This document shows, in pieces, positions 11,506-62,867 of a stretch of 62,867 bases of DNA (the stretch's first letter is position 1; each line of letters starts with the position of its first letter). The notes under the pieces were generated by a model that ran no database searches, was not told the DNA's origin, and saw only the letters and a program-made list of their open reading frames with translations. The DNA comes from a virus (Duplodnaviria; Caudoviricetes), in IMG/VR virus record IMGVR_UViG_3300032050_000130, positions 1 through 62,867 of that record. One strand, written 5' to 3'. The position numbers and the translations under genes are program-made.

Positions 11506-11862
11506 TTATTTACTAGCTGATTCAGTTTGTTGAATTCTGCTTGGTGCACCTGGTTGATAAATAACAGTTCCTTGTTCTAAATCGATTTGGTGTCTAGGGT
11601 ATTTTTCTTCTAAAGAATCAACCACACCTTTTAACTCTCTACTCTTATCTTTAAAAGTATCCTCTGCTTTTTCAAGAATTTCATCTAATCTAACTAGTTC
11701 TGAATTTAATTCTTTTTTTCTAATATAGATTTGTCCGAAATCATTTATTAAAGCTGATAAATCACCATTTAATGATTTAATTTTATCAACTACTTCTGCT
11801 TCTAACTTTACAGTTTCTAAATCAATAGACTGCTTTTGTGGAATTTTATCTAATTCTGCCAT
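11506..11862 (-). CDS. Small coiled-coil protein, paralogue of 15451-15735
   Basis: FGQIYIRKKEL...LEEKYPRHQIDLEQGTV aligns with LGQLSVRSREL...LQRKYKNAEIDLNDGTV. Confidence 0.75.
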   Translation of the reverse strand: MAELDKIPQKQSIDLETVKLEAEVVDKIKSLNGDLSALINDFGQIYIRKKELNSELVRLDEILEKAEDTFKDKSRELKGVVDSLEEKYPRHQIDLEQGTVIYQPGAPSRIQQTESASK

Positions 11863-11897
11863 AAACTTTTTGTTTTATTTTTGTATATATAAGTATA

Positions 11898-12287
11898 TTA
11901 TTTTTTATTTTTTAAAATGTTAGTGGTACTAAACCCTTCGATTTTATTGAAAAATTCTATTTTTGGAATATATTCTACTCCTATTATTTCGTCATATTTG
12001 TAATCGTTACCAATAACCATAACATCAGGTCCCCATTCTTTGATTCTTTCTATCAATTCCGCATCGGAACTAAACGATACAACACTATGTACACTTTTTA
12101 TATTTGATAAAAATTCAATTCTATCGTTTAGGTTGTTATATGGTCTATTTTCTCCCTTTTTGGATTTTACTCTTTCATCCGTATCAATACCAACTCTTAC
12201 TTCTCCAAATGTTTTCGCAAATTCCAATAAACGTAGATGTCCAACATGAAGTATATCAAATGTACCATTTACCCAAACCTTATTCAT
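11898..12287 (-). CDS. HldE/RfaE domain II-like sugar-phosphate nucleotidyltransferase (putative ADP-heptose synthase)
   Basis: NGTFDILHVGH, VGIDTD..V..KKG..RP, PDVMVIGNDY and GFSTT; abuts a heptosyltransferase-like gene. Confidence 0.8.
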   Translation of the reverse strand: MNKVWVNGTFDILHVGHLRLLEFAKTFGEVRVGIDTDERVKSKKGENRPYNNLNDRIEFLSNIKSVHSVVSFSSDAELIERIKEWGPDVMVIGNDYKYDEIIGVEYIPKIEFFNKIEGFSTTNILKNKK

Positions 12288-15084: not shown

Positions 15085-15088
15085 TATG

Positions 15089-15120
15089 TAAATATACGAA
15101 AAAAACTTGAATTTTCCAAA
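15089..15120 (-). promoter_or_regulatory. Bacteroidota-type sigma70 promoter (-33 TTTG / -7 TATATTTA)
   Basis: Minus strand reads TTTG-N20-TATATTTA, ending 4 nt before the ATG at 15084. Confidence 0.65.
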
Positions 15121-15121
15121 T

Positions 15122-15424
15122 TTAATCCATCACTACGGGATTCGTCATATGTTCTACGAAAGTTAATCCCAAGTGTTCACATAGTTTTTCTGCCAAAAAA
15201 TAGTTATCCATACCCCAATTATTCAAAATGTTAGCAGGTACTTTCCATTCTCCACTTGAAATAAAAGAATCTGGTTCGGCTACTGAATTTTGTGAATTTC
15301 TATATCTCAATTCGTATCTAACAGTACACGCATCTCTACCTAAATCGTAGTTCAAAATGTTACAATATAGTCTATTTATTGTATTCCCTAATAGATTAAT
15401 TTCTTGTATTTTAGTTTTTAACAT
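15122..15424 (-). CDS. Hypothetical protein
   Basis: 100-aa ORF with its own ATATTTATA motif at 15439-15447. Confidence 0.7.
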   Translation of the reverse strand: MLKTKIQEINLLGNTINRLYCNILNYDLGRDACTVRYELRYRNSQNSVAEPDSFISSGEWKVPANILNNWGMDNYFLAEKLCEHLGLTFVEHMTNPVVMD

Positions 15425-15450
15425 CTTTTTTTGTTTTCTATAAATATAAA

Positions 15451-15735
15451 CTATTCAGATACTTCAAACGTAACCGTACCATCATTTAAATCAATTTCCG
15501 CATTTTTATACTTTCTTTGAAGGTCTGATAATACATTCTCTAATTGAAGACTTTGGTTATCCAACTTATCTTCTATTTGTTTTTTTATTTCAAGTATTCT
15601 TTTAGATTCTAATTCTAGCTCTCTGCTTCTTACAGAAAGTTGTCCTAAATCAAAGATATAACCATTTACATCACTTTGAATGTTTTTGATATTATCTATA
15701 ATATCTTCTGCTATTTTTTCGGTTTTTGTTGCCAT
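15451..15735 (-). CDS. Small coiled-coil protein, paralogue of 11506-11862
   Basis: Start moved to MATKTEK at 15735, which removes the overlap with the upstream gene and follows the motif at 15749-15757. Confidence 0.75.
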   Translation of the reverse strand: MATKTEKIAEDIIDNIKNIQSDVNGYIFDLGQLSVRSRELELESKRILEIKKQIEDKLDNQSLQLENVLSDLQRKYKNAEIDLNDGTVTFEVSE

Positions 15736-15769
15736 ATGATTGTTTATATATAAATATATATGTTTTAAA

Positions 15770-38400: not shown

Positions 38401-40470
38401 TGCATATTGGATTGTTATTTTAGAAGTATCAATACCATTCTTTAATGCAAAATTACTTACAAGTGATGTAGAACTTACCGAACCACTTGCTACCAATGTA
38501 TCATATATCTGAAACTCTATTCCATTATCTGGTTGTAAAGAAAAATTAGGCCCTCTTAATGTATTACAGGTAATTTCTTCTTCACCAACAATAGTAACGG
38601 TTTCAATTATAGGTGTTGAAATAACTTTCGATACCCATAACTCTTGATTTGGCTGTATTGATGTTTCTAGTGGTTCGTATAACTTGTAAATCAAAGTGTT
38701 TCTATCACCCAACCAAGTTGTTATTACCTTATTGTTAGCATCTCCTAAATGTAATAAATGTGTAAGATATTTATTTGTTTCTTCATCAAATATTTTTGAT
38801 TCAAGTTGATTTAAGAACCCTTCAGCAATTCTATTAATTGCAACATTTCTAGGAATCTCTAAATCACTTTTTTGGAAATTAATAGAAATTGTTTCTTCTT
38901 TACCAACTACCTCTTTCTGTCCACTTATGTTATATGGGACAAGTTTTAAAATAATACTAATTACTTTATCATTTGCAGAAGTATCGTAATTAATATATTC
39001 AAGAAGTTTTTGAAAATTAAAACTGACATTACCACCCGCAGCTTGTCTGAAATATCCGGTAGAATTATTAATATATATTCTAACAAAATCAGTATTTACG
39101 GAATCATATGATATTTGAAAATCAACATTTGTTCCAGAATAATCAGCTCCTACTATTTCTTTAGGATATACTATGTTTCTTAAATCAGGAACACCAACAA
39201 ACACCTCATCAAATACCGGTATCGATAATTCCAATGGATTACCATCGATTGATACATTTTTAGGAACTAATATTAATTTATAATTTCCTATCGTATCAAA
39301 CGCCGAACCAGGAATTATTATCAACGTTTCATTCTGTGCACTATCCTTTGTAAAAGTATATTCTTTATCTTTAACGTAAGCGGTTATAGATGTTACATTT
39401 CCATTTGCCTTTACAACTAAAGGTAAATCTGCTTTTGAATTAATATTATATTTTAATAAAGAATCAGATGTTACAATAGAAAGTGAAGGTGTTGTAGTTT
39501 CGGTTATAGTTATTTCTTCAACTTCTACATTTAAAACTGAATTGGCGGTCAATGTAAATCTATAAACTAAATTTTCACCAGTTTCAGCTATAACAGGTGT
39601 ACCTTTACCATTTTCTGGAATATATTGAGCATTTAAAACTCTATAAAGTCCTGGGTTCGCACTTGATATTACAAAATCTGCGCCAGAATCTGCGATAATT
39701 GCAGTATTACCACTATTCAACAAGCTTCGTTCACTACCATCCGCCTTTTCTATATTAATCGCTCTATTTGGACCGGTAACGGAAACTACTAAATTAAACG
39801 TAGGTGTTTTTATTGCAACATCATCAACGGGTACAACTGGTAGTTTTGTATTTTTCGGAAAATTAAATGATAAATCTCTAACATTTTGATTATCAAAAGT
39901 TATATCCGAATTTTGTAAAACATCTCCAATATAATATTCTATTTTAAAAGAATAAGGTGGTGTTTTTGTAAAAATTGCCTTTTTAGCATCAGGTTCAACC
40001 GATAAAAATCCGTCTACATTTTTTAATATCGGCTCATAATTATTAAACGTTGTATCGCTAAAATTAGGATTTTGTACAACCGTAATTCTATAGCTTTCAT
40101 TTGCAAATACATCTCTTCTTTGAGAAGTAATTAATACTTGTCCTAATTTTAAAATATCACCTAAAGTATAAGATAATTTTGTAGGAGTTGTTTTAAATGT
40201 ATTTTCCCCATTTACAAATAGTGTAGCTCCACTTTCATTTGAATTGACAATAAAAATAAGATTACCATCCTGATTTATAGTGCCAGCTGTATTTTGTCCG
40301 CCTATTGGTACAATATCATTGTTATTATTCACAATGGCTGGCTTACCATCAGGCAAAATAACAGCATCAACCGGTTGTAAAGTATCAACTACCGATGTTA
40401 CATTCTGCTCCAATTGTTGTTTTATGAGCTCATCCGATTGTTCTATTCTATCGTCATTTAATCTTGCCAT
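35440..40470 (-). CDS. Large baseplate wedge protein (gp7/P2 gpI-like core plus beta-sandwich domains)
   Basis: IPEYI..FMDMLGQHFD and PYILKHKGTGRAMKAVMACYG; LamG-like YKGNVDEFRLW; position in the baseplate operon. Confidence 0.75.
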   Translation of the reverse strand: MARLNDDRIEQSDELIKQQLEQNVTSVVDTLQPVDAVILPDGKPAIVNNNNDIVPIGGQNTAGTINQDGNLIFIVNSNESGATLFVNGENTFKTTPTKLSYTLGDILKLGQVLITSQRRDVFANESYRITVVQNPNFSDTTFNNYEPILKNVDGFLSVEPDAKKAIFTKTPPYSFKIEYYIGDVLQNSDITFDNQNVRDLSFNFPKNTKLPVVPVDDVAIKTPTFNLVVSVTGPNRAINIEKADGSERSLLNSGNTAIIADSGADFVISSANPGLYRVLNAQYIPENGKGTPVIAETGENLVYRFTLTANSVLNVEVEEITITETTTPSLSIVTSDSLLKYNINSKADLPLVVKANGNVTSITAYVKDKEYTFTKDSAQNETLIIIPGSAFDTIGNYKLILVPKNVSIDGNPLELSIPVFDEVFVGVPDLRNIVYPKEIVGADYSGTNVDFQISYDSVNTDFVRIYINNSTGYFRQAAGGNVSFNFQKLLEYINYDTSANDKVISIILKLVPYNISGQKEVVGKEETISINFQKSDLEIPRNVAINRIAEGFLNQLESKIFDEETNKYLTHLLHLGDANNKVITTWLGDRNTLIYKLYEPLETSIQPNQELWVSKVISTPIIETVTIVGEEEITCNTLRGPNFSLQPDNGIEFQIYDTLVASGSVSSTSLVSNFALKNGIDTSKITIQYASGSEYLFENFINFSSATERVENFVYKVKLLEYYDSKISELSSNSIGETNEKKKFENASVEIKTNFDGYEKYLYYTTNEESNGLAYPKTNPSSSILINTTSSLFTLWYDTALDASIVFDKYNPNKISNNIPEYIIESEENKEFVIFMDMLGQHFDALWIYIKSLSKSKELYENSLYGISNDMVIHILESLGWNSKRAFDSNFLWEYVFGQYQDGRQKYSKSLKSANEEVWRRILNNLPYILKHKGTGRAMKAVMACYGVPQSMLTIMEFGGPQDPSKGGSTQFTFDDRTAAYYLSGSSSVKVPWVSSSLTNDYPNCIEFRIKPDTLPNTVYTLISGSEWSLDLVKTTGSFGKLELNFGGDQALAPYFAPTGPNTPYITSTIIYAYGPDYKTGSLDFPISTEHYSNVVINRHNYPGSTSLFEVWLGTSDGERIITSVSMSILSEDTQWGTGSYVQIGGNGYKGNVDEFRLWKVPLQRSKFNNHTLFPDAINGNSYTASTEDLLFRLDFEYPKDRNIDPYIKNVAINDTYGHNSATASFTYVAPNYPYQHTPYDRTVTATVPSLGFGYSNKIRFESASLVTDLSYKTRATKKSFDQSPIDSNRLGLFFSPIKEVNMDILKTFGDFNIDNYIGDYSDEYKDEYRTLSKLRNYYFQRMERNINEYIQLVRYIDKSLFDVLADLAPARAKISKGLLIEPHFLERSKTRWNRPSSERNDHESAISLMDTNQIDSSYEVKEGELNNQDIATLEGNLNNYDGIVNAGDVYELEGTNPNYEGLVDYNVTDMLEADAPFFDTFIQALQTGSNIVAEVDSFNSIQIGMDRNSLENLGFGLYAKNGSAVVRTWDGLFGNTETTGSRKSVFLVKEQTTKKISTQIAGYPVNGASPGDQVRYQDVPVTFDNYKVSVQPYGGSVTLGNGVVEATTINGYLPTHYKFKFMPEGLKRSYFKGSQQTVSTTPDGLSPVETFTTNPNILRVAKTGRGSGEPILEVD

Positions 40471-47802: not shown

Positions 47803-48852
47803 TTAATATTTTGATATATGTTCATATAATCTTTTGGCCTGTGCATATGACGGGTGGAATCCATCTCCAATAACACCTAAAGAAATTTTTGGAACAATTA
47901 TTGCATTTTTTATAATGTTTATTGATTTTTGAAAAACTCTATACTCTGCTAATAATTTTTCCATTTCAGCTCTTGTTTTTACTAATCTAGTTGGTTTTGT
48001 TGAATTATCTCCCATATCGATATCAGAATCATATCCCGTTACCACTACTGCTTCCGCTCCGGTTGCTCTAACTGTATCAACCATACTTTGTAATGCATTT
48101 AAAATTTGCGGAGTTTTTCTACCAGAATAACAATCGTTTACTCCACCATAGATATAAACTTTATCGTATTTATTAGTTTTCAGTCTTGCTTCCAAATTAG
48201 GTTTCATCCAAGCGGTAAGTTGTTCTCCCCCTTTTGCCAGTATCTCAATATTTAAATCCTTTCTTTGTGTTTGAAATATTCCTGACCAAGTATACTTTGA
48301 TATAACCGTAATAGAATCTCCAACTATTAATATTTTTTTACCACTTGGATTTCCAGGTGGCGGATTTTGTTGATTATTTTGTCTATTAGATGGTGCCGTA
48401 TTTGATTGATTATTTTGTCTATTGGGTGGAGTTGGTGGCGTACTTGCACCCGCATTTGTATTCTTCCATTGCCCTACAACAGAAACATAATTACTATTAG
48501 CCGTTATATTTGCTACCGCACCTGCCGCCGCTTGGGTAGCGGTTATCAATGGTGGAGTTGGTGTAACTAAAGTTGCACCTGTCCAATATATTTTTACTCC
48601 CTCTCCCATTGCACCTGTTAAATCATATGCATCAGTAGATGATAATCCGGTATTAAGTGCTCTAATAAATGCCGTTTTCATACCTTCAATATTTCCTTTT
48701 AAAATAGGAATTCGGTTTATACTATCTCCACCTCTCTTTACACACGCATCATATTCTTTTGCATAAACATCCGCAACGTATTCTATGCTAGATACTCTTG
48801 ATGCATCACATAATTTTTGAAGTACGTTATTTTTAAAAATTTCCCAAGACAT
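47803..48852 (-). CDS. Baseplate-associated protein with a C-terminal SGNH/GDSL hydrolase
   Basis: IVGDSIT, G block II, GGVND and DGFHP, after a Pro/Asn/Gln linker. Confidence 0.8.
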   Translation of the reverse strand: MSWEIFKNNVLQKLCDASRVSSIEYVADVYAKEYDACVKRGGDSINRIPILKGNIEGMKTAFIRALNTGLSSTDAYDLTGAMGEGVKIYWTGATLVTPTPPLITATQAAAGAVANITANSNYVSVVGQWKNTNAGASTPPTPPNRQNNQSNTAPSNRQNNQQNPPPGNPSGKKILIVGDSITVISKYTWSGIFQTQRKDLNIEILAKGGEQLTAWMKPNLEARLKTNKYDKVYIYGGVNDCYSGRKTPQILNALQSMVDTVRATGAEAVVVTGYDSDIDMGDNSTKPTRLVKTRAEMEKLLAEYRVFQKSINIIKNAIIVPKISLGVIGDGFHPSYAQAKRLYEHISKY

Positions 48853-52833: not shown

Positions 52834-53490
52834 TTATTTCTTTACTTTAATTTTCCAATATGTACCAAATCCAACATACGGTGAGAATCCACCATTAGTT
52901 CCATCGGTTGTTCTATTGTTTACACCTAAATTAAATTGATATAATTTATCTTTTTTGGTTTTAAGAATTAATCCACCACCAACTGCAGATACATAATCTT
53001 CTTTATTAAATCCAGCATTCAAGCCATAATATAATTGTGCTTTCGCAGGTTCTTTAACAATAAGTTCTTCTTTGATAATTCTTTCTTTTACTTTAGCATC
53101 CCAAGTTCTACCTAAAATTCTATTCTTTGTGATAGTATCGGTAAGAGCGATAGTTCCTAATCCACCATCTAAAGTTAGTGTATCTTTATAAACTACCTTT
53201 GCTAAATAATCTTTTAAAAGTGCTGCGGTATCCACATTAACTAATTCTTTAAGAACCAAAGTATCTACATCAATTACTTCATGTACAATATCTTCACCTT
53301 TTTTAGTTACCACTTTTACTTTCTCAACTTCGATAGTATCAATCGTATGTTTTAATACTTCATATTTTTTACCATCGATTTTGATAGTTCTTCCACCCGG
53401 CATTACTCCACCTGGATTAAACCATTGTAATAATACATAAATAATTAATGCTGCAATAGCAATATTTTTAAAATTCAACAATTTTTTCAT
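52834..53490 (-). CDS. Membrane-anchored protein with amphipathic C-terminal beta strands (possibly spanin-like)
   Basis: N-terminal hydrophobic helix, repeated DT(I/L), and the C-terminal LYYGLNAG..PYVGFGTYW. Confidence 0.55.
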   Translation of the reverse strand: MKKLLNFKNIAIAALIIYVLLQWFNPGGVMPGGRTIKIDGKKYEVLKHTIDTIEVEKVKVVTKKGEDIVHEVIDVDTLVLKELVNVDTAALLKDYLAKVVYKDTLTLDGGLGTIALTDTITKNRILGRTWDAKVKERIIKEELIVKEPAKAQLYYGLNAGFNKEDYVSAVGGGLILKTKKDKLYQFNLGVNNRTTDGTNGGFSPYVGFGTYWKIKVKK

Positions 53491-53527
53491 AAGATATTCG
53501 TTTTATGTGTATAAATATTCAGTTATT

Positions 53528-54958
53528 CTAAAATACCATCTTTGAACCAATTTGGAAGTTGTTCATTAAATTAAACTTTGGTTCAAAGGTCATAGCACCT
53601 CTATAAGATGTTGAAAGAGCAAATCTTCTACTAATTTTATAATCGTATCCCAATCCAACGATTGCTCCTGGTGTTCTACTTACCGAACTATTTCCGGTCA
53701 TTGTATTCCACGCTATTGGTGATTGCATTACGAATAATTGTGGAGTTAAGGTAACCTTTCTATTATATTGAAATGGTTTCATCCAAAATCCCACTACCGA
53801 TGCACTCAAAGATACATCATACCCACTACCACCCATTTTTGGCATCATTAAAGTAATAACACCCACATTATATCCCATCGTTCCCCATTTGGGATGTGGT
53901 TTAATGTACGTGTACCCATTAAGGTTCATAAGCGTTCCTTTAAGGTAAGCAAATGTAGTTCCGTATGAATGTATCGCATTTAATTTGCCCTCCTCAAAAT
54001 CCATCTTTGTAACCCCAGCACTCAAAGCAAATTGGTCCAACGTACTCCAAATAAGTGCGGTAGCTGAATATGATTTATCGCCCATTAGAGATGATTTGGA
54101 AACACCCACACTCATCATTACAGCGTATTTACCTTCCATATCCTCCGTTCCTGCTAAATCACTAGCTAACATCATTGGATTTGCTACTGATTTCTTTTTT
54201 TCTTCTTTTTTCTTTTCAGATTTTTTCTCCTCTTTCTTTTCTTCCTTTTTTTCTTCTTTAGATTCTTCCTTCTTCTCCTCTTTCTTTTCCTCTGATTTGG
54301 ATTCTTCTTTCTTTTCTTCGGATTTACTTTCAGATTTAGATTCTTCTTTAGATTCAGACTTGCTTTCCGATTTACTCTCTGATTTTGTTTCAGATTTGGT
54401 TTCGGTTTTAGTTTCAGTCTTTGTTTCAGAAGATGAGCTAGATGATGAAGATGAACTACTTCCAGAACTACTACTTCCCGATGAAGAAGATGGTGGAGTA
54501 GAACTACTACCAGATGATGGTGGTGCCGATGTTGGTGGTGGGGTTGATGCCGCGGCTGTACTTGCACTACTACTTGCAGCGGCAGATGCCGATGAACTAG
54601 CTGCTGAACTCGCCGCACTACTTGCAGCTTGTGAGGCCGCTTGTGATGCTGCAGCCGATGCCGCTTGAGTTACCGCTTGTTGAACTACCTGATTTGTAGG
54701 ACACCCCATTGTTGAATATGCCGTATAAGTTGCGGTTATCCAAACTTGAACCGCACCTGCCATTACTTCCTGTGGTGAGAATACTCTTATTTGATTATAG
54801 AAAGATACCGTTGCAAATCCGTTTGTGATTGTAGTGGTTGCTATTTTAATTTCACCAGTACATTTATCCTTATAGGTTTGGGTATAGGTTTGTCCCATCG
54901 CCTTTTGAGCGAATGAAGTTATAACAATTATCAGAAAAAAGAGTATCCATTTTTTCAT
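53528..54958 (-). CDS. Predicted outer-membrane beta-barrel protein with a long low-complexity linker
   Basis: Sec signal peptide; Ala/Ser, Ser/Pro, (ETKT/ESKS) and (EEKK) repeats; alternating beta strands ending in FQIGSKMVF. Confidence 0.7.
   Translation of the reverse strand: MKKWILFFLIIVITSFAQKAMGQTYTQTYKDKCTGEIKIATTTITNGFATVSFYNQIRVFSPQEVMAGAVQVWITATYTAYSTMGCPTNQVVQQAVTQAASAAASQAASQAASSAASSAASSSASAAASSSASTAAASTPPPTSAPPSSGSSSTPPSSSSGSSSSGSSSSSSSSSSSETKTETKTETKSETKSESKSESKSESKEESKSESKSEEKKEESKSEEKKEEKKEESKEEKKEEKKEEKKSEKKKEEKKKSVANPMMLASDLAGTEDMEGKYAVMMSVGVSKSSLMGDKSYSATALIWSTLDQFALSAGVTKMDFEEGKLNAIHSYGTTFAYLKGTLMNLNGYTYIKPHPKWGTMGYNVGVITLMMPKMGGSGYDVSLSASVVGFWMKPFQYNRKVTLTPQLFVMQSPIAWNTMTGNSSVSRTPGAIVGLGYDYKISRRFALSTSYRGAMTFEPKFNLMNNFQIGSKMVF
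54190..54690. repeat. Low-complexity coding region (AASS, poly-S, ESKS, EEKK)
   Basis: Visible directly in both DNA and protein. Confidence 0.85.
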
Positions 54959-55786
54959 TTAGAAGTTCACCCCCAATCCAAAAGTTTTGCTATTGATTAC
55001 CGGGTCATAATCAAACTTTATTGTTAAATTTTTAAAATCATGTAACGCTCCTACTTTCATAGTAGTAAATCTATCTAAATATTTTGGGAATGTAATATAT
55101 CCCAAATCATCTTTACCTCTCCATTTTACATCTTCGGAAACGGTACCAATCATAAAGTGAACACCGGTTCTCTTTATTCGTTTACCAGCTCCGATATAAA
55201 AACTATTTCGTTGAATCAAATCATTAACCATTGGAAAATCAACTTGAGTTATATTACCATATGGAAAGAATGTTGAATTATCTCTTTCAACACTTGAATT
55301 GTATTCCATTATAAGATATCCCTTATTACCAATGGTAAAGAACCCACCCAATTGTTTATCGGTTGTTTTCTGAATACCAAAACTAATTACAGGCTTCTTA
55401 CCTCTAATTGTATCTCTCTTACCATCGTTATAAACATAAATTCTTGCAGGTTGGCGGTATCCCCAATCGTTCCAATAGAATGATGGTTGCCAAAAGTTCC
55501 ATCCAAAGCCAGGTGCTCCCCACATATTCCATCTATTCCATCCCCATCCCCAATCGTTAAAGAATGGGTCTCTTACGATAATATTAGAACCAGGTCTTGT
55601 TCTGGTTGGTCTATTATACTCTCTAGGTGATTCGTTTCTCCAACTACTTACATCGTTTCTTTGTGGAATTGATTGTTGTACGGATGGAGTACTTCTTTGT
55701 GGTTGTGATGGAGTGGTTCTCCAATTGCTAACTTGTGAAAAAGCTAGTGTTGGCACAAATGCCAATAAAAATAATAAGTTTTTCAT
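54959..55786 (-). CDS. Predicted small outer-membrane beta-barrel protein with a Trp/Gly-rich N-terminal region
   Basis: Signal peptide (LAFS-Q), DWGWGWNRWNMWG region, C-terminal FGLGVNF. Confidence 0.7.
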   Translation of the reverse strand: MKNLLFLLAFVPTLAFSQVSNWRTTPSQPQRSTPSVQQSIPQRNDVSSWRNESPREYNRPTRTRPGSNIIVRDPFFNDWGWGWNRWNMWGAPGFGWNFWQPSFYWNDWGYRQPARIYVYNDGKRDTIRGKKPVISFGIQKTTDKQLGGFFTIGNKGYLIMEYNSSVERDNSTFFPYGNITQVDFPMVNDLIQRNSFYIGAGKRIKRTGVHFMIGTVSEDVKWRGKDDLGYITFPKYLDRFTTMKVGALHDFKNLTIKFDYDPVINSKTFGLGVNF

Positions 55787-55815
55787 AGGTATATTATTTA
55801 GTTACCTATAAATAT

Positions 55816-55841
55816 AAAAAAAGGGAGTATTACCTCCCTTT
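55816..55841 (-). terminator. Rho-independent terminator
   Basis: Minus strand AAAGGGAG-GTAATA-CTCCC followed by T7, after the lipoprotein stop. Confidence 0.85.
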
Positions 55842-55846
55842 CGATT

Positions 55847-57043
55847 TTAATTACCTTTTGATGGAAATCTAGTCCATCCATTTACCCATAGAGGTTTATC
55901 TAATTCAGGTATAACCACATCTATCTCTTTATTACTCTTTGAAAGTGCTAATGTTTTCAATTGGTCATTTGTTAAGATTGTAGTTGCTTTACTGATAAAG
56001 TTTAAAGTAGGATTAAATGTTCCTACTGAATTGTTTTCAAATACCGAAACGCCATCTTTTACGAATTGTGTAGTTTCATTACTTTCCAAACTTAAACCAC
56101 CTTTCATCCATCCCCAAATTACACTATTCTTCATTGTGAATTGAGTTGCTCTCCTAAATCTCAAACCTAAATTGTGGTTTGCTAATGCGGTAGATACATT
56201 CGGTCCAACTAAAATCATATTATAAAGTTTCGGATGTGTGTATGGAGTTGCAGTTGAACCTGTTCCATCGTTATCACATTCTACACCATTTCCAGCATCA
56301 CCATTATCTACGAATTGTGGGTCTCTCTTTGCTACACCATTCGTAATTGTTCCAGTAAATCCAAAATCAAAATCAAAATCATCATCTGCGGTTGCAAATG
56401 CATATAAGTTTCTTGGTGATACAGTTCCACCAAAGAATTCAAATGCATCATCGTTAGCATAGATAGTTTGAACATTCTCAATGATTGTTCCACTACCAAC
56501 ACCACCTAATGTTAGTGCGTTTATTTCCGAGTTTGGCATTGCTGCAATTCCTGCATATTCAATTCTTACAAAACGAAGAACACCACTATTATCTAAATCG
56601 TTTGTTCCACCAAATGGTCTACCTATACCACCTTCGATTGTTGGTTCTGATGTTCTATTGGTTTTTGCTCTACCCAATATAACAATACCACCCCAATCAC
56701 CAGGTGCCTTTTCACCATTTGCTCTACCTGATGTAAATACAATTGGTTTTGTTGCAGTTCCTTCCGCAATTAATTGTGCTCCTCTTTCGATGCACAATGC
56801 TCCCTTTTCAGCTATATCAGATACGATTGTTGTACCCGGTTGAATGATAAGTTTTGCTCCATCGGTTACATATACATAACCTTTCAATGTCCAAACTTTA
56901 TCCGCAGTTAAAGTTGTTGTTGTATTAATGTTGCCGGTAAGTGTAGTTGATGTTGGAATGTTAATCGGTCCATCACCACCACCTAATTCTTTTTCGCAAC
57001 TCAATAATCCAAATGCTAAAATAGCTACTAATAGTTTTCTCAT
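55847..57043 (-). CDS. Beta-helix surface lipoprotein partnered with the TonB-dependent receptor
   Basis: Lipobox LLSC; PGDWGGIVILG, DNSGVLRFVRIEYAG, NALTLGGVGSGT, DDAFEFFGGTV and DDDFDFDFG; 4-nt overlap with the TBDR gene. Confidence 0.85.
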   Translation of the reverse strand: MRKLLVAILAFGLLSCEKELGGGDGPINIPTSTTLTGNINTTTTLTADKVWTLKGYVYVTDGAKLIIQPGTTIVSDIAEKGALCIERGAQLIAEGTATKPIVFTSGRANGEKAPGDWGGIVILGRAKTNRTSEPTIEGGIGRPFGGTNDLDNSGVLRFVRIEYAGIAAMPNSEINALTLGGVGSGTIIENVQTIYANDDAFEFFGGTVSPRNLYAFATADDDFDFDFGFTGTITNGVAKRDPQFVDNGDAGNGVECDNDGTGSTATPYTHPKLYNMILVGPNVSTALANHNLGLRFRRATQFTMKNSVIWGWMKGGLSLESNETTQFVKDGVSVFENNSVGTFNPTLNFISKATTILTNDQLKTLALSKSNKEIDVVIPELDKPLWVNGWTRFPSKGN

Positions 57044-59289
57044 AAATTCAAATTTAATGTTAATGAAATTGTTTGTTCGTTGTTTGTTTTTATCAAATTT
57101 CGGTTTTGTAACTTTTGATAATAGATTGATGGTTGCGCAAGTACATCACCTATTGCCAATTTTATTTCACCTTTATTCAATTTGTGTAAAAGAGTTATAT
57201 CCAATACATCTCTACTATTTTCAAAGATGTTTGGGTAACCCTGAAATCCTACTGCTGATATTCTATCTCCAACTCTATTGTAAGTTATGTTGATAGTATT
57301 TTTCTTTTTGTGTATATTCACTCCACCATTTAACACATAGTTTGATTGTCCCTGCAATTGTCTTTTCATACCATTCACTTCTACTTCGGAATTCATTACC
57401 GAAAGATTTGTGTAGAAATCAAACCAACCATTTATTTTTTTACGAACTTCCAACTCAACACCATATAGGATAGCTGAATTGGGATTTGTATAAGTTAATA
57501 ATAAGTTTGATGGAACTGAACCATCTGCTACAATTTGTTCAATTGGTTTAATGAAGTTCTTACCAAATAAGGAAAGTGAAATATTCTCACCTGCCTTTGG
57601 ATACCATTCGTATTTAAGGTCTACATTATATATGTCAGATTTTTCTAACTTTGAGTTTCCTAATATTTGTGCGTTTCTTACAAAATCATAATAAGCAAAA
57701 TTAGCTACTTCTCTAAACTCTGGTCTTGCTAATGTTTTACTTAATGAAAATCTATACTTTGTTTTTTCTTCGTTGTATGAAAGATTTAGGGATGGTAGTA
57801 TATCCAAATACTCTCTATCTACATTTACCTTCTGTCCACTAAAATCTGCGGTTGATACATCAAATAAATTATACTCACCTCTTAATCCGGTGTTTAATTT
57901 CCATTTACCGAATTCAGTATCATACATTGTGTAAAGAGAACCCAAATCAAAATCGGCTGTGTATTTATCCGTATTGTTTGTAATTTCATCCATCAAATCA
58001 GTTGACTGATATCTAAATACTCTAGCATTGAATCCTCTAATCTTTTTTAAGTATCCACCACCTACTTTTACTTTACCAAATTCTTTATTGATATTACCAT
58101 TAAAAGAGTTCTCATCCATTACACTCCAAAAACGATATGTATCTCTCCATGCGGTTTGGTATGGTTCGTTTACTCCTAATGATTTTGTAATTGGATTAAC
58201 TCTATAATCGGGTTGCTCTCTAAAGATGTAATTGTATCCTAAATTAAAATCTAATGTTTTAATCTTACCATCGAATTGTGAATTAATTACAACGTTATTA
58301 ATATGATTTGACGATGTACTTCTTACGTTCTGAATATTATCAAAATTATCACCATTACGGGTTAGATATGTATCATCGGACTGATAGTTTACTAATGTTT
58401 TCCAACTATATCGATTTTTACCTAAATAAGTTAAATTTAATAAACCATTTGCAGAAAATCTTTTTGTAAATAAAGTATCTTTATAATCGTATGCTAATTC
58501 GGTAGATGATTGATAATCTTTTCTATCAATATAGTTTAAAACAAATGAGTTTCTAATTGTAGAACTTAATAATGCATTCCATTTACCTTTTTTATATCCA
58601 GCTGATAATCCACCATTTAAATTTGGCAATGAAGTAAATCCTTCTACCATTGGGTTACCAAATTGTTTCGTAAATAATCTTTTATCACCATTTCCGCTAA
58701 TTCTGTATTTGTAAGTAGATGGGAAGGTGGAAGGGAAATCAGTAGGTTGAACTAACTTGAAATCTTTCGAAGTTGAAACCGAGCCCCAACCACTTCCCAA
58801 TGAGATATTAAAAAAGTTATCGGATACTTCTTTTGTTGAAACTTGCACCAAACCACCGGCCCAATCACCTGGTTGATTTGCGGATGCCGATTTAGCAACT
58901 ATAATATTATCAATTAAAGATGTTGGAATTATATCAAATGAAAATGCTCTTCTGTCAGGTTCAGTTGATGGTAATAGGGTTTTGTTTAATAAAGCCGAAT
59001 TGTATCTATCCGCTAATCCTCTTACTAATACAAACTTATCGTTTTGTATTGTTACGCCACTTACTCTTTTAAGTGCATCACCCACATTTCTGTCAGGTGT
59101 TTTTTTAATAAAATCAATAGATACTCCGTCCGAAACTACGGATGAATTACGAATTGTAGTTATTACAGCTGCTTCGGTGGATTTCTTGCCTGCCGAACGG
59201 ACTGTTACCGTTGATAATTGTTTGGAAAATAGGGTGTCTTGCGAATACGTTACAAATGGAAGTAACAATAATAAAAGAAACGATTTCAT
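57040..59289 (-). CDS. TonB-dependent receptor
   Basis: Signal peptide; plug motifs DALKRVSGV, VRGLADRYN, FSFDIIP and AGGLV; barrel motifs LPSLNLSY, RPEFRE, GN..L, DLKYEWY and GVELE. Confidence 0.92.
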   Translation of the reverse strand: MKSFLLLLLLPFVTYSQDTLFSKQLSTVTVRSAGKKSTEAAVITTIRNSSVVSDGVSIDFIKKTPDRNVGDALKRVSGVTIQNDKFVLVRGLADRYNSALLNKTLLPSTEPDRRAFSFDIIPTSLIDNIIVAKSASANQPGDWAGGLVQVSTKEVSDNFFNISLGSGWGSVSTSKDFKLVQPTDFPSTFPSTYKYRISGNGDKRLFTKQFGNPMVEGFTSLPNLNGGLSAGYKKGKWNALLSSTIRNSFVLNYIDRKDYQSSTELAYDYKDTLFTKRFSANGLLNLTYLGKNRYSWKTLVNYQSDDTYLTRNGDNFDNIQNVRSTSSNHINNVVINSQFDGKIKTLDFNLGYNYIFREQPDYRVNPITKSLGVNEPYQTAWRDTYRFWSVMDENSFNGNINKEFGKVKVGGGYLKKIRGFNARVFRYQSTDLMDEITNNTDKYTADFDLGSLYTMYDTEFGKWKLNTGLRGEYNLFDVSTADFSGQKVNVDREYLDILPSLNLSYNEEKTKYRFSLSKTLARPEFREVANFAYYDFVRNAQILGNSKLEKSDIYNVDLKYEWYPKAGENISLSLFGKNFIKPIEQIVADGSVPSNLLLTYTNPNSAILYGVELEVRKKINGWFDFYTNLSVMNSEVEVNGMKRQLQGQSNYVLNGGVNIHKKKNTINITYNRVGDRISAVGFQGYPNIFENSRDVLDITLLHKLNKGEIKLAIGDVLAQPSIYYQKLQNRNLIKTNNEQTISLTLNLNL

Positions 59290-59361
59290 AAAGTCATTTA
59301 AGTTAGTTCCTCAATAACTATGTAATCGTTTCTCTAAATAGGGTATTTCAATATTAAGAAA

Positions 59362-59697
59362 TTATGAAGAAATTCCACAAAGTGTTAAGAATTCAGATGC
59401 ATTATGTATTACATCTTCTGATTTGAATTTTCTTAACATAGCCTCTGCTATTTCCTTTCTATTGTTCATATCATCTACCATACGAATAATTTCAGCAACA
59501 CCTACAACCATATCTCTATCGTTTTCATGACCTGGCGCAACTTCTACTTCTTTGATTGGAGTATTATCGTTTCCACATTTGTGACAAGTATATGGATGTT
59601 TCCTACCTTCGGATATTTTCCAAGTCCAATCACACTTATCGCAAATTACTTTACCATTAGAAACTTTTTCTTTTAATAAACTACTTAATCTTATCAT
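59362..59697 (-). CDS. Small Zn-ribbon protein with MIRLSSLLKE leader
   Basis: CDKC and CHKC pairs; an internal IKE site. Confidence 0.7.
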   Translation of the reverse strand: MIRLSSLLKEKVSNGKVICDKCDWTWKISEGRKHPYTCHKCGNDNTPIKEVEVAPGHENDRDMVVGVAEIIRMVDDMNNRKEIAEAMLRKFKSEDVIHNASEFLTLCGISS

Positions 59698-59981
59698 TAT
59701 TTTAATTTATTATAAAATTTATCGTATATAGTTTGCTTAATTTGTATAGGTAATTTTAATTTTCTATCTTTAATATAATCATCTAACTTGACCGATTTTA
59801 CGGAATACTTATAATCAAATTTAGCCATTGGTTTTGATTTTAAAGTTATGTCTACCAATGTATCTCCATTTTTATCCCAGCCCTTAGATGGATAAGATAA
59901 AACGGTATCTTTTAAAAATTCTTCAAAAGAAACTTTTTTTGATTTTTTTACTTCTTTTAATAAACTACTTAATTTTATCAT
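59697..59981 (-). CDS. Small protein with MIKLSSLLKE leader
   Basis: Start moved to 59981, which removes the overlap with the upstream gene. Confidence 0.7.
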   Translation of the reverse strand: MIKLSSLLKEVKKSKKVSFEEFLKDTVLSYPSKGWDKNGDTLVDITLKSKPMAKFDYKYSVKSVKLDDYIKDRKLKLPIQIKQTIYDKFYNKLK

Positions 59982-59982
59982 A

Positions 59983-60591
59983 TTATTTACATTTTTTCCA
60001 ACCACCACCTTTTGATTTGTAGTTCTTTGCAGCCCATCCGTTTGCATACGCAGATGGATATACATCGAATTTCTTTTTAGCGGCAGATTTAGATGCTGAC
60101 CATTTACCTGGGTCAGTTGGACAATTCTTTTCCAAGAATAATTCCAGTTTTTCTTCTATTGTCATGATTTCGTTTTTCTTTTTACCAGCACAATGTGCTT
60201 TTTGTGAGAATCCTTTTGGGTTAGAACAATTGATTGAGTTCTTATATTTTGTACTCCACTTTTCTTCCAATCCTTCACTAGCTCCTGTCTTTACAAATGT
60301 TGGTTTTTGACCTTTTGATTTTTCACCACCTTTCTTAGCATCTCCTGCTTTGGATTGTGCAGCTCTTTTTCTTTTTACAAATGTAGCAATACCATCTTTA
60401 CCTAACTTAGCTGCTTTTTCTTTTGATAAACAAGCTGCATATGAATCTCCTTTCTCACTATCTCCACATTTACCAGCTTTCTCTCCTTTAGTATTATATC
60501 TATCCCAGCCACCACCAGTAGTAGAGCCTTCACCACCTTTACCAAACCATTTGCGGAGGTCTTCGTTTAATATTGATTTTAATTCAATCAC
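59983..60591 (-). CDS. Basic multi-module protein (DUF5872-like C-terminus) with MIELKSILNE leader
   Basis: EDLRKWF; EKWSTKYKNSINCSNPKGFSQKAHC; KKKFDVYPSAYANGWAAKNYKSKGGGW. Confidence 0.7.
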   Translation of the reverse strand: MIELKSILNEDLRKWFGKGGEGSTTGGGWDRYNTKGEKAGKCGDSEKGDSYAACLSKEKAAKLGKDGIATFVKRKRAAQSKAGDAKKGGEKSKGQKPTFVKTGASEGLEEKWSTKYKNSINCSNPKGFSQKAHCAGKKKNEIMTIEEKLELFLEKNCPTDPGKWSASKSAAKKKFDVYPSAYANGWAAKNYKSKGGGWKKCK

Positions 60592-60698
60592 TATTTTAAT
60601 TTATTTAATATTGCTAAATTTGCATCTATTAATTTCTTTTTCTTCAAACCACTTCTTCTACTTCTCATTGGTTTTGGTTTTTTTGCTGCACTTCCCAT
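60591..60698 (-). CDS. Very small basic protein (35 aa)
   Basis: Translated by hand as MGSAAKKPKPMRSRRSGLKKKKLIDANLAILNKLK; fills the gap exactly and its TAG overlaps the next GTG start. Confidence 0.55.
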   Translation of the reverse strand: MGSAAKKPKPMRSRRSGLKKKKLIDANLAILNKLK

Positions 60699-60702
60699 AT
60701 TA

Positions 60703-61431
60703 TTACTTAGCGAATACGCCCTTTTTAATTAATTTATCTAAAATGTTTGCACATGCTACATCCAATGCTTTCTTAGTTGAAATACTAATTGTTGATTGGT
60801 TAAACTTAATTGGGTCTATTGAAGCATCCGAAACTAATGTTAATTGTCTAGTTGTTTTTGCTTCACCCAAACCAGATGCTGCTATAATTGCTCCAGTTTC
60901 TGCATTTGTGAATCTAACCTGTAAACCTAAACGAGTTACCATATTATCTTTAATACCATCCTTTAGGTTGATAGTTTCATCTTCCGATACTGAATAATCA
61001 TACACCTCAATTTCTACAAAGTAGTGTGCTAATTTAATATTTCCTCTACCATTAATTTTGTTTTCAGAAATTCCAGCGTTTGATGCTTTGAATTGTTGCA
61101 CCATTCTGTTTTTGATTTCAGTTTTATCTTCGGTGAATTCGAATCTATTAAGATTATCCAAATATTCTAATACGATGTTTGCAACACCCAATCCAACTCT
61201 CTTTTCTTTTAGTTCAGGATACATTTCGTACACTTCTTCACCAATACCACACTTTAGAATTTGTATGTACTTTTTAGGTCCTTCATAATCCATATAAGCA
61301 GATATATCTCTTTTCTTTTCAAAATCCGCCTTAAATTCTTCCGTCTTTGTACTTCCTATTGTTTGCGCAGTTACTACACTTACACCACTCGTAATCAACA
61401 ATATACCTAATAATACTAATAATTTTTTCAT
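60703..61431 (-). CDS. CsgG/HfaB-like exported protein
   Basis: Signal peptide; GLGVANIVLEYL..LNRFEFTE...AHYFV..EVYDY...LQVRFTNAETG.II...G.G fits the CsgG-like fold; no lipobox Cys. Confidence 0.65.
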   Translation of the reverse strand: MKKLLVLLGILLITSGVSVVTAQTIGSTKTEEFKADFEKKRDISAYMDYEGPKKYIQILKCGIGEEVYEMYPELKEKRVGLGVANIVLEYLDNLNRFEFTEDKTEIKNRMVQQFKASNAGISENKINGRGNIKLAHYFVEIEVYDYSVSEDETINLKDGIKDNMVTRLGLQVRFTNAETGAIIAASGLGEAKTTRQLTLVSDASIDPIKFNQSTISISTKKALDVACANILDKLIKKGVFAK

Positions 61432-61457
61432 ACATATCTATTTTTTATATAAATATC

Positions 61458-62351
61458 TTAAAATTGAAAGTTCGTACCAATCATAAACATAATTGGATTA
61501 GATTTCTTATAACCTACCGATTCTGATAATTTATCCCAAGTTGTGTTATATCTGATATTGGTGTTTAATATAAACCTTTTAGTTATTTTCCAATCCATAG
61601 ATGTACCATAATATAAGTCCAAATTGAAATCATTCAAATATGCTAAATCTGATTCAGTACCATCTTTGAATACTTTGTAGATATCACTCATAGCAAATAT
61701 TTGTGGTGATATATTAACTCTTTTTGTTTTAAGTGTATATGTGTACATTAACATTCCTTTGTAAGTAGTTTGTGATGATGCTGGCATTTGTGGATAAATC
61801 AAATCTAAAAAATCACCATTGATATCAATCGTATATTTTCCTTCCCACTCACCTTGATATGAATCCCAATATGTTTTTGATGCCGTTAAACTATATCCAA
61901 ATGTTCCAAACTTTTTAGTTCTGAATACATCTATAAATGAAATGTTAATATCTTTTTGGAAATCAAAATCCGTTGAATAAAATGTTTGTATCGTTGTTGT
62001 TCTCTTATCGGTATTTCTACTAAAACCATAACCTACTCCATAATAATTCCATATAGGATTTATTGATGCGGCAAATGAGTGTCCCCATTTACCATTCATT
62101 GATGATTTGCTATACCCTAAATTTAAAGTAGTTGATACCTGCTTTCCTATTATACCAACTGATAAGTTTGATGATGAAAGAACATCTTTTGAAAAATCAA
62201 TATAAGATTGTAATATACCCACATCATTCCAGTCATCGCTCTCTCCAAATAATTCTTTTGCAGATAATTGTAATGTATCAGGTTTTACAATTTGTGCGTT
62301 TGAAACAAAACCTATACAAAATAAGAATACTATGATTATTAGTTTTTTCAT
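61458..62351 (-). CDS. Predicted outer-membrane beta-barrel protein
   Basis: Signal peptide from MKKLIII at 62351 (VSNA-Q); alternating aromatic strands; ends in FMIGTNFQF. Confidence 0.7.
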   Translation of the reverse strand: MKKLIIIVFLFCIGFVSNAQIVKPDTLQLSAKELFGESDDWNDVGILQSYIDFSKDVLSSSNLSVGIIGKQVSTTLNLGYSKSSMNGKWGHSFAASINPIWNYYGVGYGFSRNTDKRTTTIQTFYSTDFDFQKDINISFIDVFRTKKFGTFGYSLTASKTYWDSYQGEWEGKYTIDINGDFLDLIYPQMPASSQTTYKGMLMYTYTLKTKRVNISPQIFAMSDIYKVFKDGTESDLAYLNDFNLDLYYGTSMDWKITKRFILNTNIRYNTTWDKLSESVGYKKSNPIMFMIGTNFQF

Positions 62352-62363
62352 ATTCATAAATAT

Positions 62364-62392
62364 AAAAAAGGGAGAAACGATGTTCTCCCTTT
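62364..62392 (-). terminator. Rho-independent terminator
   Basis: Minus strand GGGAGAA-CATCGT-TTCTCCC followed by a T run. Confidence 0.85.
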
Positions 62393-62395
62393 AAT

Positions 62396-62867
62396 TTACT
62401 TTACATTTGGGTCTTCTAGATTTTTGATATATTCATCAATTAATCTACTTACGGCTTCAGGTTTATCATCCGCCTTAAACTTAACCTTTATTTTAGCCAT
62501 ACCTGTTTCATGTGGATTAAATCCAGAATCAACCTCAATACCTTTGATATTGTGTTCATATCCTTTTTTCTTAAATAACCCTAATAGAGATTTTTTAAGA
62601 CTGGATACTTCTTTATCTTCATCACCAAATATAAGTCTACAAGAGAACTCAATATCTAGTTCATCCAATCCAATAGATGAGTGGTCTGCTAAAATATAAA
62701 GAGGTACAACCAAATCCTTACCACCTATATTAAAAGTGTGAGTTTTGGGTGTACCATCTTCATTGAAATAGTTTCGGAGAGCATTAATATGCTGTCTTTC
62801 ACTTATACCTTGAGAAACCATGGCGGCCTCTAAAAGACCGCCAACTAGTTCCTCTACATTTAATCTT
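62396..62867 (-). CDS. DUF2589-like protein (5'-truncated by the window edge)
   Basis: The frame stays open upstream of the listed ATG (..RLNVEELVGGLLEAAMVSQ); LVVPLYILA..SIGLDELDIEF and PEAVSRLID resemble DUF2589. Confidence 0.6.
   Translation of the reverse strand, partial: RLNVEELVGGLLEAAMVSQGISERQHINALRNYFNEDGTPKTHTFNIGGKDLVVPLYILADHSSIGLDELDIEFSCRLIFGDEDKEVSSLKKSLLGLFKKKGYEHNIKGIEVDSGFNPHETGMAKIKVKFKADDKPEAVSRLIDEYIKNLEDPNVK

Follow-up and report, generated by a model that had tools for sequence, protein, structure and literature searches.

Why would a tailed phage carry, side by side, a series of genes whose products are destined for the envelope of its bacterial host? This question is raised by the IMG/VR virus record IMGVR_UViG_3300032050_000130 (Duplodnaviria; Caudoviricetes), which was analysed in full; its 62,867 bases, with a completeness estimate of 34%, are referred to here as the window. 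The last 10 kb of this contig hold a cluster of eleven open reading frames (ORFs) across positions 52834-62866, all on the minus strand, as is every long ORF of the window. A preliminary description of the same DNA had proposed that most of the encoded proteins are exported envelope proteins, that the genes belong to the phage rather than to contaminating host DNA, and that they make up one outer-membrane remodelling cluster. The first two of these proposals are borne out by the analysis and the third is not: the cluster is a real, phage-borne and widespread envelope gene set that consists of two modules with sporadic additions. Module A is a TonB-dependent receptor with its partner lipoprotein, and module B is a protein of the CsgG superfamily paired with a stalked beta-barrel protein. 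Infected cells probably acquire a rebuilt surface. Taken together, the last 10 kb are best explained as a cargo region, variable in content, that belongs to a large T4-like phage of freshwater Bacteroidota, an explanation to which we would give an even chance.

The phage is a T4-like myovirus. Upstream of the cluster, the window encodes a T4-type portal protein (PF07230, E 1.3e-69), a prohead protease of family S77, the large terminase, gp25- and gp6-like baseplate proteins, a primase, an SbcCD-like nuclease and a SegE-like endonuclease; no tRNA genes are present in the window. Among cultured phages, the portal protein comes closest to those of Microcystis phage Mel-JY01 (49.5%) and, next, of Flavobacterium phage vB_FspM_immuto (44.4%), and a megablast search of the 10-kb stretch against GenBank phages returned no match. 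Apart from the receptor and the lipoprotein, none of the exported proteins of the cluster belongs to a Pfam, PHROG, NCBIfam or PADLOC family, and the sole match to PHROGs among the cluster proteins is that of a 202-aa protein discussed below.

An assembly chimera at the cluster border, in which host DNA had been joined to a phage contig, was the danger named in the preliminary description. It could be suspected on two grounds, namely that the receptor pair has bacterial counterparts at 68-71% identity and that the G+C content reaches 0.369 at 54-56 kb against about 0.30-0.34 nearby. However, the rise in G+C coincides with the position of a Ser/Ala-rich repeat in the gene for a 476-aa protein, and gene strand, spacing and overlap are continuous through the region. 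Relatives of the receptor are encoded in 96 of 98 pattern-matching stretches in a scan of viral contigs; the best 80 of these 96 relatives are 66-91% identical and stand on contigs of up to 326 kb, and 16 of the 96 receptor-bearing contigs are records of 111-326 kb with phage genes on either side. The junction at 52834 itself recurs in record G009, in which the receptor, the lipoprotein and the 275-aa, 476-aa and 218-aa genes are followed by the genes found at 48.6-52.8 kb of the window, at 67-93% DNA identity. Because G009 repeats the gene order and runs on into the same phage genes, the border at 52834 is genuine. In addition, seventeen sequencing runs from 12 studies contain 77-87% of the sampled words of the 10-kb stretch; these are near-identical copies, one of which may be the source, and the runs are labelled as freshwater or lake water and, in five cases, as fungus metagenome. 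A chimera is refuted for practical purposes, the host-contamination objection falls with it, and, as is expected of a viral auxiliary metabolic gene, a host-type uptake gene is found in a bona fide viral genome and is kept among its relatives.

The gene for the 749-aa receptor of module A lies at 57040-59289 on the minus strand. Its earlier assignment as a TonB-dependent receptor stands, as two Pfam domains are matched above their curated cut-offs, OMP_b-brl_3 at E 1.7e-25 and Plug at E 2.2e-8 (35 bits, with 23.9 required); against TIGR01782 the protein (E 1.2e-55) scores 189 bits, below the cut-off of 310, which places it outside that subfamily model. The gene for the 398-aa lipoprotein (55847-57043, minus strand) overlaps the receptor gene stop by 4 nucleotides (nt) and is translationally coupled to it; this overlap and an LLSC lipobox agree with the proposal that the lipoprotein is the partner of the receptor. 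Neither protein has a relative in the PDB by sequence, and the lipoprotein has none by profile either. The lipoprotein family is very large, with at least 7257 sequences at E<=0.001 among 8000 scored candidates. Identity ranges from 91 to 98% among the best 120 of these family matches, PF28492 is carried by every one of the 120 matches listed, and many motif residues, such as those of GDWGG, NDDA.EFFGG, ADDD.DFDFG and DAGNG.E.DNDG, are invariant from the phage to Pedobacter. The invariance of the motifs and the high identity among the best 120 matches argue for a retained, specific function.

To judge from sequence comparison, the receptor and the lipoprotein are a recent joint capture from an Aquirufa-like host lineage, and the host of the phage itself is likely to be Aquirufa-like. 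The closest bacterial lipoproteins are those of Aquirufa (Cytophagales), with a best-segment identity of 67-71% (71% across residues 1-397); the next-best in a sample of 201 Bacteroidota genomes, of which 130 contain a family member at E<=1e-10, reach 57-61%. The receptor is 68% identical to an Aquirufa receptor over 729 residues with only 2 gaps, and the two Aquirufa genes are adjacent. Compared with its Aquirufa counterpart, the phage receptor is missing the CarboxypepD_reg domain only: its signal peptide is joined just ahead of a stretch, STVTVRSA, that aligns with DVVVKTVA of the Aquirufa receptor before the plug and is TonB-box-like in sequence. The CarboxypepD_reg domain is retained in the receptor of the phage relative L068. 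A receptor of ~940 aa stands upstream of the lipoprotein in four more bacterial loci, and the order receptor-then-lipoprotein was seen in seven bacterial loci examined. An unrelated 635-kb uncultured phage in GenBank, LR745206.1, encodes adjacent homologues of the receptor (27.6%) and the lipoprotein (37.1%) at 77559-81048, which suggests that such pairs have been captured independently and repeatedly. The receptor pair also occurs on three small faecal contigs labelled 'Bacteriophage sp.', which may be bacterial fragments.

The best reading of the receptor-lipoprotein pair, with its chances about evenly balanced, is that of an auxiliary gene pair for phosphorus scavenging; nutrient uptake had been among the roles considered in the preliminary description, and for this pair it is the best supported of them. 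In Aquirufa, the pair is followed by genes for a metalloenzyme-superfamily protein, two PHO4 phosphate transporters and a Porin_O_P; a type I phosphodiesterase lies near the pair in the bacterial locus L106, and a histidine kinase and a response regulator in L086. The bacterial genomes G068 and G043 encode GT28, Porin_O_P, HisKA/HATPase and response-regulator proteins with, divergently, a TonB-dependent transporter (TBDT) and a lipoprotein (393 and 388 aa); the transporter has CarbopepD_reg_2 and Plug domains, and OMP_b-brl_3 is reported for G068 only. The same layout and Pfam families characterise Fjoh_0541-0546 of Flavobacterium johnsoniae in Table 1 of Lidbury et al. (2020, PMC8115612). According to the passages of that study that concern this locus, the TBDT and the lipoprotein 'FII' (Fjoh_0545/0546) are strongly induced by phosphate depletion, with transcript fold-changes of 8.0 and 9.9, both proteins are abundant in the exoproteome under phosphate depletion, FII is assigned a pectin-lyase-like beta-helix fold (IPR011050), and a low-phosphate lipoprotein of Caulobacter is among its relatives (PMC8115612). 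The phage lipoprotein is 39% identical (E 2e-64) to the lipoprotein of G068 (locus L185), and by way of L185, whose neighbours show the published layout, it is found to be homologous to a lipoprotein of a phoBR-oprP locus. The low-phosphate lipoprotein of Caulobacter is presumably the one named ElpS.

The pair is also well kept among phages. The comparison went gene by gene through sixteen long related viral records of 111-326 kb, of which five are rated 100% complete and one has terminal repeats; the genome size of the complete relatives is 171-326 kb. The pair is held by 14 of the 16, with one lipoprotein gene cut by a contig end; in the two records without the lipoprotein, the contig ends inside the receptor gene. 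Phosphate-acquisition genes next to outer-membrane proteins (OMPs) are described for aquatic huge phages in passages of a preprint (10.64898/2026.10.24.761521). During infection, the receptor and the lipoprotein would be inserted in the host outer membrane, with the lipoprotein probably surface-exposed, where it would bind or process an external phosphorus-containing substrate. The receptor barrel would import this substrate, driven by TonB/ExbBD of the host, and periplasmic phosphatases and PitA, again of the host, would then supply phosphate for the synthesis of the large phage genome. In lakes poor in phosphorus, module A would in this way serve the phage as an auxiliary metabolic gene pair. 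The explanation as a whole, which is evenly poised, joins what was observed of gene identities, folds, phage ownership, origins and linkage to a substrate, an expression timing and a benefit to the phage that we infer.

It is important to point out that several results weigh against a role in phosphorus scavenging. Porin_O_P adjoins the closest bacterial orthologues clearly in one of 25 genomes, with two marginal cases, and lies near a listed family match in three genomes of the 201-genome phylum sample; because Porin_O_P is so rarely adjacent, the phosphate link by neighbourhood is not a general one. Two of the five loci scanned with Pfam, L093 and L147, have no phosphorus-related neighbour. 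The tie to Fjoh_0546 is made through the matched layout of the loci and not through its own sequence, and FII-type lipoproteins are without known biochemical function even in bacteria. No PHO4 or PstS-like gene was found in the five complete relatives, and the presence of PhoH in four of these five (G003-G006) is uninformative. Finally, the receptor of the window is without the N-terminal CarboxypepD_reg domain of the bacterial ones.

Module B has a different composition. Its first member is a 242-aa protein of the CsgG superfamily with a signal peptide and no lipobox cysteine (60703-61431, minus strand). The claim that it is CsgG-like holds on account of its fold and of its relatives. The AlphaFold2 (AF2) model has a predicted local distance difference test score (pLDDT) of 82.8 and a predicted template modelling score of 0.71; its best match in Foldseek is CsgG (4uv2) with an E of 7.9e-8, a probability of 1.00 and a template modelling score of 0.53-0.55, and PelC, FlgT and LptE appear further down the list. 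A full HMMER scan yielded 202 relatives at E<=0.001, and of 34 aligned sequences, made up of the window protein, 2 homologues from phages and 31 relatives, 15 match Pfam CsgG and 6 match LpoB. The 242-aa protein itself matches no Pfam family at E<=0.1, PF03783 included, and its link to the CsgG family model is transitive, by way of the 15 matching sequences of the alignment; it likewise has no PDB match by sequence. Its look-alikes in a protein language model are consistent with CsgG, and its top match in BFVD is a protein of an uncultured phage that is already named CsgG. The phage protein thus shares its fold, over ~225 columns, with the CsgG curli channel (4uv2/4uv3) and the CsgG/HfaB/LpoB clan, but differs from CsgG in having no Pfam match of its own, no lipid-anchor cysteine and no curli partners; it is paired instead with the stalked barrel protein. 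A GC lipobox is present in the consensus of distant relatives, and no lipid-anchor cysteine was found in the three phage copies examined, whose signal peptides end in ..AQ or ..GQ. The protein was not found in five bacterial genomes, including Aquirufa, with the queries used, and its profile gave only weak matches, in 21 genomes, when run against the 201 Bacteroidota.

The second member of module B is the 476-aa stalked barrel protein (53528-54958, minus strand), which was characterised by means of an alignment (A3), AF2, Foldseek and VIA-align. In the alignment, the signal peptide at the N-terminus is followed by a domain of ~70 aa with two conserved cysteines (the N-domain), by Ala/Ser repeats and by two regions of biased composition, the first rich in Pro/Ser and the second in Ser/Glu/Lys; a conserved NP.L.ASDL motif then stands before the C-terminal domain of ~215 aa. 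In the AF2 model, a helix at residues 241-251 comes first, and residues 262-475 form 12 long strands and a further strand of 3 residues. Foldseek places NanC, FapF, autotransporter barrels and KdgM best, at an E of about 1e-6; VIA-align of the barrel gives NalP first (Z 24.1, root-mean-square deviation (rmsd) 3.2, 235 aligned), then EspP (22.2) and Hbp (20.7), and after these autotransporters KdgM (18.7, rmsd 1.7), FapF (18.6) and NanC (17.4). The middling confidence of the model speaks against leaning on it too heavily: pLDDT averages 56.5 over the whole protein and about 57-81 in blocks of 10 residues within the barrel. Nevertheless, the prediction of the C-terminal domain as a beta-barrel, as the preliminary description had it, is well supported by the 12 modelled strands and the matches to NalP and KdgM. 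An autotransporter-like reading is suggested by the arrangement of type Va autotransporters (NalP 1uyn, EspP and Hbp), which have the same 12-stranded C-terminal barrel after a helix and the remaining sequence on its N-terminal side; this reading leans partly on low-confidence helices. Unlike in autotransporters, the "passenger" would be only a ~70-aa domain on a low-complexity stalk of ~170 aa. No autotransporter barrel family of Pfam or NCBIfam is matched at E<=0.1, the barrel taken by itself is matched as closely, or more closely, by plain 12-stranded porins, as the rmsd of KdgM indicates, and the barrel is also alike to that of the amyloid exporter FapF, with no sequence-family match.

Next to the 476-aa gene stands a third, for a 218-aa protein (52834-53490, minus strand) with one N-terminal hydrophobic helix that is, on its sequence, a putative membrane anchor or uncleaved signal; it has no family match in Pfam, PHROGs or NCBIfam. 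Complex prediction of the CsgG-like protein together with the N-domain and barrel of the 476-aa protein returned a score of 0.01 against a mark of 0.32, which speaks neither for nor against binding. If the models are right, the 12-stranded barrel would anchor the small N-domain on a long Ser-rich, Glu/Lys-rich stalk, and module B would either display a phage protein on the surface of the infected cell or provide a link across the envelope. Such a role in surface display or envelope linkage is less certain than the role proposed for module A.

The distribution of the genes among the related records separates the two modules. Homologues of the CsgG-like gene are found in 13 of the 16 records and homologues of the 476-aa gene in 11, and they lie within 6 kb of each other in all ten records that hold both, with a gap of less than 100 nt in four (G004, G008, G013 and G014). 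As in the window, the receptor-lipoprotein pair stands between them in G003, G007 and G011; in G004, G008, G010 and G014, by contrast, the CsgG-like and 476-aa genes are 13-48 kb away from the receptor pair. Since the CsgG-like and 476-aa genes stay close while the receptor pair moves away, modules A and B are separate units that merely happen to be together in the window, and the single remodelling cluster of the preliminary description does not survive this separation and the different origins of the two pairs. Seven of the 16 records have a homologue of the 218-aa gene; in four of them no more than 190 nt separate it from a module B gene that it follows, namely the 476-aa gene in G004, G008 and G009 and the CsgG-like gene in G010.

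A cultured phage offers a direct comparison. In immuto (NC_055915), gp017 is 56% identical to the CsgG-like protein, and gp018 (474 aa), encoded directly after it, has an N-domain that matches that of the 476-aa protein (E 2e-7); both are annotated as hypothetical proteins, and their adjacent genes correspond to the CsgG-like/476-aa pair of module B. Lectin, cohesin and nuclease genes lie upstream of gp017, as they do in the relatives L008 and L068. Immuto differs from the phage of the window in its host, a brackish-water Flavobacterium, and in having no homologue of the receptor or the lipoprotein. The product of the next gene, gp019, was considered as a homologue of the 218-aa protein and rejected as not homologous. 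These comparisons indicate that module B belongs to an old phage lineage that is also represented in immuto, and that its origin differs from that of the receptor pair.

This separation bears on the proposal of a single secretion or adhesion apparatus, in which a CsgG-like ring would export a fibre or adhesin and the barrels and the receptor would be parts of the same machine. The CsgG fold, the resemblance of the 476-aa barrel to the amyloid exporter FapF (Z 18.6) and the aromatic, Gly-rich region of the 275-aa protein are what such a machine might display, but with the receptor pair and the CsgG-like pair parted by 13-48 kb in four relatives and of different origins, with phage CsgG-like copies that have no lipid-anchor cysteine, no CsgA/B/E/F-like protein seen, and the 299- and 275-aa genes present in only two and three of the 16 relatives, the apparatus is improbable, and the inclusion of the receptor in it is not upheld. 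Module B (the CsgG-like, stalked barrel and 218-aa proteins) could alternatively serve in lysis, as a device that spans the envelope and, in place of spanins, breaks up the outer membrane late in infection. One part would be anchored by an N-terminal helix and another would sit in the outer membrane on a long spacer; the 218- and 476-aa genes are adjacent in the window and in three of the seven records that hold the former (G004, G008 and G009), the 218-aa homologue of G010 comes after the CsgG-like gene, and in L008 the same cargo region encodes, 7-9 kb upstream, an endolysin (PG_binding_1 and Glyco_hydro_19) along with small membrane proteins. Spanins are not known to have been defined for Bacteroidota phages, a further point in favour of such a device. 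It would, however, have no likeness in sequence or fold to known spanins and be deduced from topology alone, the 218-aa protein is absent from nine of the 16 relatives and far from the module in three, and family scans recognised neither endolysin nor holin in the window; we consider this reading very doubtful.

Superinfection exclusion or receptor masking, whereby the receptor, lipoprotein, barrels and stalked protein made by the phage would alter or hide the receptors of the infected cell and keep other phages, or the progeny of the phage itself, from adsorbing, has to be weighed for both modules. A stalked surface protein could shield the cell surface, and the receptor is more variable among phages (66-91% in the best 80) than the lipoprotein (91-98% in the best 120). 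Passages of the preprint mentioned above raise exclusion for phage OMPs, citing Lom of phage lambda, which blocks LamB, and TonB-dependent receptors are common as phage receptors (10.64898/2026.10.24.761521). Yet the conserved cores of module A are kept, with 2 gaps in 729 residues of the receptor and many invariant lipoprotein motifs, and therefore a retained transport function fits better than mere cover; PADLOC matched none of the eleven cluster proteins. Exclusion is on balance unlikely, and phosphorus scavenging by module A remains the reading that we prefer.

The remaining genes of the cluster are sporadic or small. At the contig end, which cuts its 5' end, lies a gene for a DUF2589-family protein (62396-62866, minus strand), identified as such earlier and matched by Pfam PF11655 above the curated cut-off (E 5.9e-13, 49.9 bits against 23); it is sporadic cargo with homologues in two of the 16 related records. 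The next gene encodes a 299-aa exported protein ending in F (61458-62357, minus strand), a paralogue of the 476-aa barrel domain (hhalign against the 476-aa family: 96.9%, E 1.9e-10, 190 columns; BLASTP E 7e-4). It has 888 homologues, with no Pfam family among the 120 listed; its profile matched none of the five bacterial genomes with the queries used, and strong homologues are found in two of the 16 related records, two more weak matches falling in 476-aa homologues. A 275-aa exported protein with a Trp/Gly-rich N-terminal region, also ending in F (54959-55786, minus strand), has homologues in three. Three barrels ending in Phe had been proposed, and a barrel is supported for the 476-aa protein and its 299-aa paralogue. 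It is not confirmed for the 275-aa protein, which has no Pfam match and no PDB profile match and was rejected as a relative of the 476-aa barrel (hhalign 4.5% only); the one result in its favour is a language-model lead to OMP beta-barrel families that scores 0.88-0.89, below 0.9.

Both sporadic genes that encode exported proteins are preceded by a similar signal on the minus strand. A terminator-like hairpin AAAGGGAG..CTCCCTTT followed by TTTATATTTA lies at 62357-62392, just upstream of the 299-aa gene, and a second, near-identical cassette of hairpin AAAGGGAG..CTCCCTTT and TTTATATTTA at 55809-55842, upstream of the 275-aa gene. The combination of a G+C-rich hairpin and TTTATATTTA 0-24 nt ahead of a start codon is confined to these two genes; matches to the signal with up to 2 mismatches number 3 in the window against 0.78 expected, and the region is richer in terminator-like sites than chance would give (13 where 4.2 are expected). 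A Bacteroidota-type promoter pattern occurs 10 times against 7.2 expected and never ahead of a cluster gene, and sigma-70-like sites (47 against 50.3 expected) are at chance level. The preliminary description had the cluster genes carry the same promoter motif; with the hairpin/TTTATATTTA signal at two sites only and generic scans at chance, this does not hold. Rather, the cassettes look like terminator-plus-promoter units of moron-like insertions, and, because each carries its own cassette, the 299- and 275-aa genes look like self-contained insertions of this type.

Three small genes without export signals (202, 122 and 111 aa) lie between the CsgG-like and receptor genes at 59362-60591 on the minus strand and are phage cargo. 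Their Pfam matches are all sub-threshold; the 202-aa protein matches phrog_27331 (E 1.8e-5), and the 111-aa protein has a zinc-ribbon-like CxxC pair. The 202-aa ORF, which has a GTG start, and the 122-aa ORF (59697-60591, minus strand) overlap by 83 nt at 59983-60065, and one of the two start codons has probably been called too far upstream.

Further genes deserve mention. The cargo region of relatives encodes a DNA/RNA non-specific endonuclease with a signal peptide, cohesin-, C-type-lectin- and LCCL-domain proteins, small lipoproteins and a class 3 lipase (L008 17133-17768, 1795-2631 and 3593-7906; L068 7743-8483); a secreted nuclease in this region would fit phosphorus scavenging. Elsewhere in the window, two giant ORFs of 2512 aa (19639-27177, minus strand) and 1676 aa (35440-40470, minus strand) match no Pfam or PHROG family at E<=0.001, and the G+C content is up to 0.37 across the former. 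A run of sugar-modification genes at 8674-17767 (minus strand) encodes two cytidylyltransferase-like proteins, one of them a 927-aa DUF5661 fusion, heptosyltransferase-like and group 1 glycosyltransferases, and a 665-aa protein that combines phrog_4417 with a radical SAM/SPASM domain. A GDSL-like lipase/acylhydrolase domain is present in a 349-aa protein (47803-48852, minus strand) whose gene lies amid those for the baseplate and tail; this protein may be a tail-associated esterase that acts on a surface glycan.

How does this gene set compare with known systems? Cyanophages carry the phosphate-acquisition auxiliary genes pstS and phoA. The logic would be the same, in that a lytic phage carries an uptake gene of the host Pho regulon and thereby eases the phosphorus limit on replication; the cyanophage genes encode periplasmic binding proteins or phosphatases, whereas the genes described here encode an outer-membrane, TonB-powered transporter and a lipoprotein of Bacteroidota. 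The relatives of the receptor in bacteria have the same Pfam make-up (Plug, CarbopepD_reg_2 and OMP_b-brl_3) as that given for Fjoh_0545 in the passages on this locus, with a lipoprotein of ~400 aa, Fjoh_0546, directly downstream. The phage pair differs from the Fjoh locus in being phage-carried, in the missing CarboxypepD_reg domain of its receptor and in having no regulator, porin or phosphatase genes alongside.

Envelope proteins in such numbers had been thought unusual for a lytic-type phage, a view that is weakened by the preprint of October 2026 already cited, whose passages on the subject report 1,603 beta-barrel OMPs in 1,303 huge phage genomes (18.1%), 678 of them freshwater, with 6-22 strands, common in freshwater phages and sometimes several per genome (10.64898/2026.10.24.761521). 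Another preprint reports, in the passage concerned, six TonB-dependent transporters in phages of ammonia oxidisers. The general phenomenon of phage-encoded outer-membrane proteins is therefore already in print. The passages of the first preprint that bear on it mention no receptor that has its own lipoprotein partner, no Aquirufa-like origin and no CsgG-like gene; its main text contains 'CsgG' 0 times and 'lipoprotein' 0 times, and its Supplementary Table 7 may list this lineage. Literature searches likewise returned no description of a receptor/FII-type pair in phages, of its Aquirufa-like origin, of the CsgG-like/stalked-barrel pair or of gp017/gp018, a result on which supplementary tables may bear. 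In its most far-reaching form, a widespread freshwater lineage of large phages would give its Bacteroidota host a complete TonB-powered phosphorus-capture unit with a lipoprotein of the FII/ElpS-like Pho-regulon family, the first such viral pair, together with a phage-specific CsgG-fold/stalked-barrel system, shared as far back as immuto, that puts a phage protein on or through the outer membrane; we offer this proposal tentatively, as one that may well turn out otherwise.

Phosphorus is limiting in many lakes, and the demand for it of a phage of 170-330 kb is high. Should the reading of module A be true, the idea developed for pstS in cyanophages would be extended to Bacteroidota and to outer-membrane, TonB-driven uptake. 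The phage lipoprotein, which is compact, highly conserved and present in many lake metagenomes, provides a natural handle on a bacterial family that is very abundant under phosphate starvation and has no known biochemical function. In the same vein, gp017-gp018 of immuto offer a tractable model for the role of the CsgG fold outside curli biogenesis, and for the ways in which the surface of infected cells may be changed.

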